Positions 541 to 62,662 of a DNA stretch of 64,000 nucleotides are shown here, one piece after another. Location of the stretch: positions 19,382 to 83,381 of the forward strand of contig JBGVLE010000076.1 in the NCBI GenBank assembly GCA_045124135.1, written 5' to 3'. Under the pieces are notes generated by a model. The model did not search any database, was not told the origin of the DNA, and worked only from the letters and a program-made list of their open reading frames with translations. Source of the DNA: Alloprevotella sp. Its GTDB lineage: Bacteria > Bacteroidota > Bacteroidia > Bacteroidales > Bacteroidaceae. Positions within the stretch are counted from its first letter, which is position 1; each line of letters begins with the position of its first letter. The translations under genes were made by a program, and so were the position numbers.

Positions 541-825
541 AGTTCAAATGGAGGGGCCTGGGGTGACGCAAATAGTTGGTTTTTTCTTCTAAAAGCCGTC
601 TGGCGCGGACGGAATGGCGGTAAAAAGTTCACAAATTCAAGATTTTCGCTCCTGTCATAAGGACCGTCGGTCGCGGAATAAGGACAGATATTACGGGGCT
701 AAGGACAATTTTTCCTGTCCTTAGCCCCGTAACGGCCTGAAAAGCACAAAAAAAGAGGCCACAGGGGGCTCTCTCTTATTTCCTACTTCAAAGATAACGC
801 CAAAAGGCGCCACGCCAAAAGACAA
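541..825 (-). repeat. Dispersed ~285-bp intergenic element, copy 1 (strand = direction of its promoter-like module)
   Basis: GTTCA(542)..GTGACG(563); unit centres at 657/678/699/720; CAAAGATA 789-796; AAAAGACAA 817-825. Confidence 0.85.
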
Positions 826-12310: not shown

Positions 12311-12597
12311 TGGTACAAAAACAGGGGTGGTGTGTGACAAAATTTATCTGAAAATCTTTTGAAAACCATCGCCGACGTCGCAGAAGCGATGGTTTTCGAC
12401 ATAAAAACGTCTTGCGTCGCTCGCGACGGCTTTTCCGACGTACGCCCATAAGGACTGTCGCCGCGGCGATAAGGACAGTTTTCTCTGTCCTTATGACAGT
12501 AAAGCACTGAATAACAATAAAAGAGGCCCCGTTAAGGGCCTCTTTTTCTTTTCTTACCTCAAAGGTAAGACCAAACGGCTGGTCGTAAAAAGACAAA
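12311..12597 (-). repeat. Dispersed ~285-bp intergenic element, copy 2
   Basis: Unit centres 12448/12469/12490; perfect hairpin 12519-12546; CAAAGGTA 12560-12567; AAAAGACAA 12588-12596. Confidence 0.85.
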
Positions 12598-30061: not shown

Positions 30062-30348
30062 TGTTCACAACCGAGGGTTGAAAATGACGAAAATACCTTG
30101 ATTGTTTGCAGAAAATCATCTCCGGCAGTCGCCGTGGCCGCTCAAAAAGCCCGAAACGGCCACTTTCATCTCTTTTCTTGGGCTTGGATGCGCCTGTCAT
30201 AAGTCCGAATAATCCTGTCATAAGCCCGATTTTTTCTCTCCTTATCCCCGTAAACGTTTGAAAATGAACGAAAGTGACTCTCTCAGGGCCTTCCTCCTTT
30301 TCTCTTGCCTCAAAGATAGTTTCATTTTGGCGGAATGAAAAAGACAAA
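30062..30348 (-). repeat. Dispersed ~285-bp intergenic element, copy 3
   Basis: GTTCA 30063, ATGACG 30084; unit centres 30199/30220/30241; CAAAGATA 30311-30318; AAAAGACAA 30339-30347. Confidence 0.85.
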
Positions 30349-41479: not shown

Positions 41480-41835
41480 TGTTCACAAAAGCCGGTCGCC
41501 TGTGACGGTCTCCAACATCTTTTAAGGGTCTGCCGCCGATTTTGATATTTTGTGTCACGGTATGTGTGGGATTGTTAAAAACGCTTAACGATAATCGTAA
41601 GAGTCAAACAATCAGGACGATATGTCTTCTGAATGTTCTGAAGAACCGTTCCTGCGCCTTCAAAAGCCTGTTTTGGCGGCCCGGCATAAGGCCGGTATTT
41701 CCTGCCATAAGCCCAGGCAAAACAGTCCTTATGTCCGTAACCCCTTGAAACGCAAAAAGAGAAGCCTTTTGTGGACCTCTCTTCTTCTTTCCTGTATCAA
41801 AGATAGCCCTCATACCGTCTGGCACCAAAAGACAA
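41480..41835 (-). repeat. Dispersed intergenic element, copy 4 (about 70 bp longer)
   Basis: GTTCA 41481, GTGACG 41502; unit centres 41686/41707/41728; CAAAGATA 41798-41805; AAAAGACAA 41827-41835. Confidence 0.85.
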
Positions 41836-54235: not shown

Positions 54236-54520
54236 TTTGTCTTTTTCGCTTGCAGCCGTCAGCGTTATCTTTGACGTAGGATAAAACAAAGAGGAGGCCT
54301 TTGGCCTCTTTTTTTGTGCCTGGCGGCCCGTACGGGGATAGGGCCCGTTTTTCCTGTCCTTATGGCAGGAATTTCTGTCCTTATTCCCGCAATGTTTTTC
54401 CCTAAAGCTGTCGGTTTTCAGCGGTTCAAACTGCCGCCGCATCAGCCTGGAGGCATTCCCGAAAGCATTTCAGGCAAAAAAATGTTTAGTTTCGTCACGC
54501 TCGACCCGCCTTTCTGAACA
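54236..54520 (+). repeat. Dispersed ~285-bp intergenic element, copy 5 (inverted orientation)
   Basis: TTGTCTTTT 54237-54245; TATCTTTG 54266-54273; unit centres 54338/54359/54380; CGTCAC 54493, TGAAC 54515. Confidence 0.85.
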
Positions 54521-60493: not shown

Positions 60494-60501
60494 CAAAGAT
60501 A
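60494..60501 (-). promoter_or_regulatory. Bacteroidota sigma-A -7 box (TATCTTTG) of the tRNA-Lys gene
   Basis: Matches TAnnTTTG, 26 nt upstream of the tRNA 5' end; same octamer as in the dispersed element. Confidence 0.7.
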
Positions 60502-62165: not shown

Positions 62166-62377
62166 TGTTGCTATGTCTTTTTAGTGATTTCTAATGGATT
62201 GCGTTGTTGGTAAACTGGTTGTTTCGTGCAATGGGATTGAAACGGCGGCAAAGTTACGTTTTTCTCTCTAAAAGGCAAAGGTTTAGTGCCTTAAAATTTT
62301 TCGCCGTGACCCGTTGCTGCCGAATTTTGGCATAGTTGGGAAAAGGCGAAAGCCGTGTGTGGCAACGCCCAGCCGTT

Positions 62378-62662
62378 TTTGTCTTTTTGCTATCCGGCTT
62401 TTGGGCTTATCTTTGAGGTAGGATAAAAGAAGAGGAGGCCTTTTGGGGTCTCCTCTTTGTATTTCAGATGTTTACGGGGCTAAGGACAGGAAAAACTGGC
62501 ATAAGGACAGGATTTTCTGCGATACTGACAGTTTTTCTTCTCTGCCGTTTCGTCTCATTTTCATACCATTCCGCCAATTTTTTGTGCCGTGTGGCCGCTT
62601 CCGGCCGTATGGGCTGTTGAAAGATGTGGCATTGCGTCACGGTCGACCGGCGGTTTTGTCTG
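62378..62662 (+). repeat. Dispersed ~285-bp intergenic element, copy 6 (inverted orientation)
   Basis: TTGTCTTTT 62379-62387; TATCTTTG 62408-62415; hairpin 62430-62457; unit centres 62480/62501/62522; CGTCAC 62635. Confidence 0.85.

Follow-up and report, generated by a model that had tools for sequence, protein, structure and literature searches.

At positions 62,378 to 62,662 of a 64,000-nucleotide stretch of bacterial DNA (hereafter the window) lies one of six copies of a repeated element, each of which opens with a pair of promoter-like boxes directed into a hairpin. A preliminary description read this arrangement as a sigma-A-like promoter transcribing the element inwards, giving either a terminated RNA of about 45 nt or, on read-through, an RNA of about 240 nt containing an array of 21-bp units, and thus a possible attenuation switch. 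The locus raises the question of what such a promoter produces and what the remainder of the element does. The promoter and hairpin are the front end of an intergenic module of ~295 bp, which is present in ~130 copies in a Prevotellamassilia-like gut bacterium and is described in no database.

Genome, element search and family consensus

The assembly searched comprises 2.35 Mb in 138 contigs with 54.8% G+C, and the window corresponds to positions 19382-83381 of contig C76. The argD-like aminotransferase encoded beside the element shows 97% identity to "Prevotellamassilia sp. isolate 39" and 79% to P. timonensis. The boxes pattern TTGTCTTTT-N19-22-TAYCTTTG was found at exactly six sites in the window, against a mean of 0.00 in 100 shuffles. 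The spacings first reported, 20 nt in copies 1, 2, 3, 5 and 6 and 21 nt in copy 4, proved exact, with 0.00 such sites expected. The relaxed pattern TTGTCTTTT-N19-22-TAnnTTTG gave 87 matches in the assembly and 0 in the backwards control, and was matched 0-3 times per genome in 40 related genomes. A profile built from the copies found with the boxes pattern recovered 131 full-length elements in the genome, and within the window exactly the same six copies. The family makes up ~1.6% of the genome.

A family consensus of ~295 nt was derived from 125 extended copies. It begins with TTTTGTCTTTT, N20, TAtcTTTG and aggtAgGAAAaAAG, and continues with a hairpin section, in which a loop joins a GA-rich arm to a CU-rich arm carrying a T run, followed by tTTTcAg. 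The array section consists of cTTACGGGcATAAGGACAG and two or three further 21-bp units, and the 3' part of ~100 nt that cannot be aligned, then TTTTTTGTCAC..CgACCCcc.TTTTTGAACA. TTTTGTC is found at both ends of the element, in the consensus and in the distal block, as a direct repeat.

Rfam, searched at the gathering threshold and at a permissive E-value, held no family for the element and returned only tRNA-Lys and a chance match to ylbH, the best score of the element (20.3 bits against a gathering score of 50). Full-text literature searching found no description of such a family, the BrickBuilt element of Porphyromonas gingivalis being the nearest, and no element match was found in plasmid and phage collections. 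An origin on viral contigs was rejected, the six pattern matches on such contigs not being elements.

The six copies in the window

The copies and the parts of copy 6 are as follows (coordinates are those of the window).

541-825, minus strand: copy 1, whole element
789-825, minus strand: copy 1 boxes, by pattern match
12311-12597, minus strand: copy 2, whole element, with sulfatase and prephenate dehydrogenase genes converging on it
12560-12596, minus strand: copy 2 boxes, with -7 box TACCTTTG
30062-30348, minus strand: copy 3, whole element
30311-30347, minus strand: copy 3 boxes, by pattern match
41480-41835, minus strand: copy 4, whole element, with a spacer of 21 nt and a degraded distal block
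41798-41835, minus strand: copy 4 boxes, around the 21-nt spacer
54236-54520, plus strand: copy 5, whole element, with DUF1573 and M23 peptidase genes converging on it
54237-54273, plus strand: copy 5 boxes, by pattern match
62379-62415, plus strand: copy 6 boxes, by pattern match
62376-62388, plus strand: copy 6 block A, TTTTTGTCTTTTT, where the element begins on its 5' side, its 3' T run lying where a -33 TTTG would be expected
62388-62407, plus strand: copy 6 spacer of 20 nt between block A and the -7 box, fixed in length and free in sequence
62408-62415, plus strand: copy 6 -7 box TATCTTTG, of the Bacteroidota form TAnnTTTG
62419-62428, plus strand: copy 6 predicted start region and purine-rich leader TAGGATAAAA, where the consensus aggtAgGAAAaAAG is conserved
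62429-62458, plus strand: copy 6 hairpin, GAAGAGGAGGCCT, loop TTTG, GGGTCTCCTCTTT, with a T-rich 3' arm followed by GTATTTCAG
62472-62531, no strand assigned: copy 6 array, TTACGGGG and then three 21-bp-phased units, a presumed double-stranded DNA docking array
62532-62629, no strand assigned: copy 6 middle region, unalignable between copies and constrained in length
62630-62662, no strand assigned: copy 6 distal block CATTGCGTCACGGTCGACCGGCGGTTTTGTCTG, family consensus TTTTTTGTCAC..CgACCCcc.TTTTTGAACA

Copy 6 lies between the divergent rpmE gene and the 3' end of argD, and its array units are centred at 62480, 62501 and 62522.

Promoter boxes

The established Bacteroidota consensus TAnnTTTG leaves its two middle positions free. 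Among 97 parsed copies, TTGTCTTTT was exact in 90, and the spacer between block A and the -7 box measured 20 nt in 91 copies, 21 nt in five and 19 nt in one. The -7 variants were TATC (42 copies), TATA (23), TAAA (11) and TACC (7), each followed by TTTG, so that variation was confined to the two free positions. The octamer of copy 2, TACCTTTG, had been said to differ at a free position; it does, and the variants in the rest of the family behave likewise.

In 12 pairwise comparisons of orthologues, which cover six loci and three related, non-independent species (G059, G074 and G106), identity was 94% in the -7 box, 87% in block A, 57% in the spacer and 54% in the upstream flank. The spacer, free across copies as well, is thus unconserved in sequence as first described. 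The likeness to the tRNA-Lys promoter also held: on the minus strand, TATCTTTG occupies 60494-60501, ~26 nt ahead of tRNA-Lys, and cTTG precedes it by another 20 nt, which is the same box at the same spacing.

Genome-wide, TTTG-N19-21-TAnnTTTG had 146 intergenic and 26 genic matches, which makes it ~27-fold denser per base in intergenic DNA; 36 of the exact matches lie within elements, that is, in 36 of the 131 copies. At the -33 place, which is the 3' end of the 9-mer, the elements carry TTTT, TTTG or TTTC with the spacing fixed at 20 nt. By geometry, pattern of variation and cross-species footprint the boxes behave like a Bacteroidota sigma-A promoter. What was proposed as sigma-A-like is supported by the TAnnTTTG -7 box and the fixed spacing, whereas the -33 TTTG is matched only approximately. 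Because the full -33/-7 geometry is conserved around a free spacer, a working promoter would be the simplest explanation. The strictly conserved TTTTGTC reaches further upstream than the -33 box and, as it also recurs in the distal block, may serve a second role.

Two other roles for this end of the element were ruled out. The promoter does not serve the downstream gene, since that gene is convergent in 50 of 116 cases, and TTTTGTCTTTT is not the tail of a terminator, since no hairpin was found upstream of block A (z ~0 in both gene contexts).

Hairpin and predicted short RNA

Hairpins downstream of the boxes had been reported for copies 6, 2 and 5, and folding energies confirmed all three. 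For the copy 6 hairpin, sense-strand folding gives -22.1 kcal/mol (z -3.9) and antisense folding -13.9; the corresponding values are -17.8 and -11.9 for copy 5, and -20.0 and -18.2 for copy 2. For the family, the 48 nt after the start region of each copy were folded as RNA on both strands in 112 copies. The sense strand was the more stable in 97 of these (Wilcoxon p 2e-15), with a median folding energy of -18.1 kcal/mol, compared with -12.35 kcal/mol for the antisense strand.

The stems of the 112 copies contain 298 G.U/U.G pairs as against 10 A.C/C.A single mismatches, an excess of which part could come from arm composition (a purine arm facing a T-rich arm) and not from selection on pairing. 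When the 5' arm of one copy was joined to the 3' arm of another, the energy changed from -18.1 kcal/mol for native arms to -13.3 kcal/mol for chimeric arms (p 3e-7), although chimeric arms still pair fairly well. Between species, copy 6 shows a compensatory change, AAGAGGAGG/CCTCCTCTT in the genome under study (G000) against AGAAGGAGG/CCTCCTTCT in G074, and the hairpin of copy 3 differs in sequence in G059 and G106 with the pairing retained. This bias and these substitutions argue that the hairpin is selected as RNA of the promoter sense.

Purines make up 84% of positions +4 to +22 after the -7 box. In 85 of the 112 copies, at least six T were present in an 8-nt window over or after the 3' arm, the T-rich window starting ~+35 after the -7 box. 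The short T tract of the preliminary description is present as a T run in these 85 copies, but most of it belongs to the stem's 3' arm, and much of it is able to pair with the A/G-rich 5' arm. Because the T run is thus base-paired inside the stem, a simple terminator scan missed the hairpins on the sense strand and is uninformative here. With this structure the hairpin looks like an intrinsic terminator of sense transcription, ~40-45 nt after the start. Promoter-like boxes together with a sense-selected, terminator-like hairpin make inward transcription into an RNA of ~40-45 nt the best reading; the length follows from a start assumed ~5-8 nt after the -7 box, and this very short terminated RNA is most likely the only product of the module.

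With a co-oriented upstream gene, a median of 34 nt separates its stop from the element and no hairpin lies between, so hairpin 1 probably also ends the transcript of that gene, and may mainly be its terminator. This is one of several observations which fit a pure DNA landmark, in which the boxes would recruit polymerase or another protein without any useful RNA and the hairpin would be a bidirectional terminator, shielding a nucleoprotein complex and ending the upstream gene's transcript. The 5' arm of the stem is rich in A and the 3' arm in T, the whole element is of fixed geometry, with 99-103 nt from its start to the first array unit in 79 of 100 copies, and at locus L031 in another species a terminator is followed directly by an array without a promoter. 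We nevertheless consider this combined reading distinctly unlikely. Sense-strand folding of the hairpin is clearly superior, conservation of the boxes is no lower next to a divergent upstream gene, such as rpmE at copy 6, and the -33/-7 geometry with its free spacer is most simply that of a working promoter.

Array, middle region and distal block

The array unit is an asymmetric motif, CTGTCCTTAT-nSC-mG, which occurs in either orientation. Distances between consecutive CTTAT/ATAAG centres were exactly 21 in 127 of ~158 cases and 42 in nine, with none of 20 or 22. About 30% of the units are flipped; the orientation patterns were <>> in 39 copies, >>> in 16 and <>>> in 13, with <><, <<> and others also present. 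At variable mirror positions no covariation was found, with fewer pairs than expected by chance (z -2.5, -3.5). The 6-nt spacers between units are 82-91% A/T at their centre, A and T being interchangeable, and the array cores are 87% identical across orthologues.

The middle region of ~100 nt has a median folding z of -0.2 relative to shuffles. Beyond it comes the distal block, whose GTCAC is 255-260 nt away from where block A begins in 58 of 100 copies; the distal block as a whole has an orthologue identity of 73%. Distances between the first unit and the distal block group into classes of 124, 135, 145.5, 156.5 (the main class), 166.5, 177, 188 and 198 nt, in steps of ~10.5, a quantisation that could partly reflect half-unit slippage and not selection. 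Among copies of the main length class, AT content varies with a period of 10-10.5 bp.

Sites in either orientation at integral helical turns are those of a phased double-stranded DNA array. The ~10.5-bp quantisation, the orientation-flipping sites and the A/T-neutral spacers point to the rear half acting as double-stranded DNA with docked protein, and it looks like a phased docking site for a putative sequence-specific DNA-binding protein. No candidate for this protein was found in the genome, the matches to HU-HIG and to the Y1 transposase being without link to the elements; HU-HIG was set aside, none of its three matches adjoining an element. By inspection, the distal block also seems unlikely to be a second sigma-A, sigma-54 or ECF promoter, as the spacings do not fit.

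These properties of the rear half bear on the read-through product. In the reading put forward at first, the hairpin is an attenuator and regulated read-through yields a functional RNA of ~240 nt, whose 21-nt repeats could act as a protein sponge or as part of a structured small RNA. The promoter boxes and terminator-like hairpin on which this builds are real, and some copies (e.g. copy 2) have a second hairpin and T run before the distal block. The attenuation switch was not upheld. The stem begins ~10 nt past the predicted start, which leaves no room upstream for an anti-terminator, so no anti-terminator is possible; neither an anti-terminator nor a ligand-binding leader of the kind that defines attenuators and riboswitches was found upstream, and no Rfam family matched. 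If there is any switch here, it would consist of protein on DNA and not of alternative RNA folding.

The functional array RNA was likewise not supported. Units in both orientations would give complementary and not identical RNA motifs, covariation within units is absent, A and T are interchangeable in the spacers, and the 10.5-bp quantisation of the distances, a helical phase, has no rationale in RNA. Folding shows no strand asymmetry in the array (55 v 43) or in the middle region (48 v 39). A sponge small RNA of the CsrB type would have repeats in one orientation and strand-specific conservation or structure, neither of which was observed. An attenuator with a long functional RNA is on this evidence very improbable.

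Genomic context and distribution among relatives

Gene contexts were taken from a crude ORF caller. With the orientation of the upstream and downstream neighbour given relative to the element, they were opposite/same in 35 cases, same/same in 31, opposite/opposite in 28 and same/opposite in 22. Element orientation showed no bias with GC skew (22/21 against 28/23, p 0.84) and was unrelated to the local gene strand.

The sister species G059, G074 and G106 are ~89% identical to G000 over syntenic DNA, and all six window copies occupy orthologous positions in them. The syntenic region of G059 (~64 kb) holds the same six copies and no others, and in that of G106 copies are present wherever its contigs cover. 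The orthologous position of copy 5 is occupied in G059, G106 and G074; more distant species gave no positional conservation for it, synteny being broken there. In this sample, which is small (one window, three species), there was no presence/absence polymorphism.

We scanned 148 genomes from the genus with a sequence model that covers the first 169 nt. This model matched at full strength only in G000, G059, G074 and G106, and about 20 other species had partial matches, either to the promoter/hairpin part (e.g. G004, G076, G124, G143) or to the array part (G117, G121, G132). Three copies in G004 have the same build in other words: GGATTTGG-N20-TTACCTTTG, a GA/CU hairpin with a T run and GTTACGrGG, followed in the rear half by 21-bp units of different sequence between A/T tracts and by a distal GGTTAAAtATGTTAAT. 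Downstream of argD in two other species (L031 and L053), arrays without a promoter follow the terminator of the gene. In the distant species G024, locus L019 seems to be a variant element orthologous to the one at C76:102211 of G000, in the same orientation.

From the full and partial matches, the different words of G004 and the promoter-less arrays it follows that the family is genus-wide and mosaic, with lineage-specific motifs. Motifs that change by lineage while the architecture is kept suggest co-evolution with partners acting in trans, turnover of copies, or both. Within the sister species, the copies appear as stand-alone units that are kept by selection.

Comparison with known repeats

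Several known repeat systems share parts of this design. The BOX elements of Streptococcus pneumoniae (boxA-boxB(n)-boxC) and the Correia elements of Neisseria are modular and occur in ~100-250 intergenic copies in genomes of ~2 Mb. They can carry promoters or terminators, fold as RNA and are regarded as mobile, in the Correia case with inverted ends and duplication of a TA. The modules of these elements are not known as phased DNA sites. The present family resembles them in copy number and modular build, but differs in its helical-phase constraints and its orientation-flipping sites.

REP and BIME sequences of enterobacteria, bound by IHF or gyrase, are species-specific intergenic repeats which serve as protein docking sites, terminators or mRNA stabilisers. 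Their versions differ by lineage, and REPs are simple palindromes linked to a RAYT transposase. The family described here has, in contrast, its own promoter. A RAYT/IS200 link was rejected, since the single Y1 transposase gene of the genome is flanked by a different, REP-like hairpin family.

Plasmid iteron and operator arrays (pSM19035 omega heptads, P1, RK2) have 3-5 sites ~two helical turns apart, direct or inverted, beside A/T-rich DNA and a promoter. They occur once per replicon, beside the gene of the binding protein, whereas the present family has ~130 chromosomal copies, no partner gene nearby and no plasmid match.

BrickBuilt of P. gingivalis is a MITE/minisatellite with ~19 copies, always intergenic, made up of a leader, tandem ~23-nt repeats and a tail, with segments that have promoter activity (Klein et al. 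2015, PMC4596501). Both families belong to Bacteroidota, are intergenic and have a leader/repeats/tail order, and BrickBuilt has small inverted-repeat ends, a variable repeat number without spacers and near-identical copies. The present family differs in having no inverted ends, 3-4 units at a strict 21-bp period, highly diverged copies whose modules are under selection, a consensus promoter pointing into a terminator, and stability of position from one species to another.

A leader/repeat/tail precedent with promoter activity of this kind would favour a selfish modular repeat, MITE-like or BOX-like, that spread by transposition, its promoter and terminator being incidental and sometimes affecting neighbours. 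The ~130 intergenic copies of modular build, the lineage-specific versions of the modules in a mosaic across the genus, the promoter-less arrays in other species and the TTTTGTC at both ends would also be expected of such a repeat. The family lacks its hallmarks, however, since neither terminal inverted repeats nor variable target-site duplications were seen in the 125-copy consensus. No copy was gained or lost in G059 over the ~64-kb syntenic region at ~89% DNA identity. The free segments are saturated with change, yet every module has been kept, and orthologues show purifying selection on the modules. Neither the sole Y1 transposase gene, with its own hairpin repeat, nor the plasmid, phage and viral-contig searches provided a carrier. 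A selfish origin of this kind is therefore rated as unlikely.

Proposed mechanism and significance

The module is read here as a composite, in which a sigma-A promoter fires into its own terminator next to a phased docking platform that is looped or bent to a distal site. What is observed comprises the motifs and their geometry, the selection acting on them and the hairpin's strand bias, and from these we infer transcription, termination and protein binding; in the reading as a whole, confidence and doubt are evenly balanced. Sigma-A polymerase would bind the -33-like, T-rich end of TTTTGTCTTTT and the TAnnTTTG 20 nt further on. Transcription would start ~5-8 nt after the -7 box and run through the purine-rich leader, and the GA-arm/CU-arm hairpin ending in a U run would terminate most transcripts after ~40-45 nt, the predicted RNA consisting of a short 5' leader and the hairpin.

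Behind the terminator, three or four asymmetric CTGTCCTTAT sites would be presented in either orientation, exactly two helical turns apart and with A/T tracts between them, followed by ~100 bp that are free in sequence but of a length kept in helical register, and finally by the distal block, TTTTGTCAC..ACCC..TTTTGAAC. A putative sequence-specific protein may dock cooperatively on one face of this array, bending or looping the DNA to the distal block. The terminator would insulate the protein complex from the promoter and from upstream genes; alternatively, the protein complex may control the promoter and any read-through.

An extension of the composite reading, which we hold to be rather improbable, is that the ~130 copies are host-maintained landmarks, in each of which a constitutive promoter makes a short purine-rich hairpin RNA beside a platform for a fast-evolving DNA-binding protein, and the RNA or its transcription loads, primes or marks the complex. 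If so, the family would be a bacterial system resembling insulators or domain boundaries, or a priming system, and its recognition code (boxes, unit and distal block) would co-evolve by lineage across Prevotellamassilia.

Transcription signals and nucleoid proteins of Bacteroidota are poorly known. Roughly one fifth of the best consensus promoters of this genome belong to the module, and in annotation its sites risk being mis-called as gene promoters, terminators or small RNAs. The 131 paralogues and their orthologues are at the same time a natural data set for the rules of sigma-A promoters and terminators in uncultured Bacteroidales. Should the short RNA and the DNA platform cooperate, Bacteroidota would have in this module a dispersed element of a new kind, regulatory or architectural.

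Element boundaries and tandem copies

The motif at the 5' boundary of the element was found again in its distal block, both in copy 6 (window 62376-62388 compared with 62630-62662) and in the copies of another species of the genus (G004; loci L012, L017 and L021), and in both genomes the recurrence is a direct, not an inverted, repeat. Elements of the source genome (G000) carry TTTTGTC at both ends; at the G004 loci, TGTTAAT occurs twice, once ~15 nt ahead of the start block and a second time within the distal block.

A tandem pair of elements was located outside the window, at 70350-71350 of contig C131 in the source genome. The first has two distal blocks with ~40 nt between them, and the second is without block A and retains the -7 box, hairpin and array.

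Across the whole source genome, the sign of GC skew matched gene strand in 29 of 31 30-kb windows. Skew therefore indicates the replication strand here, despite the fragmentation of the assembly.

Resemblances around the hairpin

Rfam returned a weak match to the ylbH leader at window 62423-62527 (+), which at 20.3 bits (gathering score 50, E 0.032) was judged to be due to chance.

A ~50-nt pyrimidine-tailed segment of the element is flanked by GAG|GTAGGA, conserved after the -7 box, and by a T-rich run ending TTTCAG|G after the hairpin (window 62416-62467 and equivalents in other copies), resembling the eukaryotic 5' and 3' splice-site consensus, respectively. This likeness is almost certainly a coincidence of purine leader and terminator tail.

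REP-like hairpins

The only IS200/Y1-type transposase gene of the source genome (164-aa frame) also lies outside the window. Short GC hairpins, whose loops are TGTAA or TTTCA, are clustered in front of this gene:

C98:28100-29050, transposase gene; example hairpins before it GGGCTGTAAGCCC, GCCCTGTAAGGGC and GGCCTTTCAGGCC

These hairpins are a REP-like repeat family distinct from the promoter-hairpin-array element, possibly forming a RAYT-type pairing with the transposase gene.

Arrays without a promoter module

Arrays of 21-bp-phased quasi-palindromes (ACGGGCCTTAGCCCCGT) were detected in two other species:

L031:4276-4363, array downstream of argD, Prevotella-like MAG
L053:4170-4208, array downstream of argD, second Prevotella-like MAG

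Because both follow immediately 3' of a gene's terminator and are without the promoter module, the 21-bp-phased array is an independent, more widespread module.
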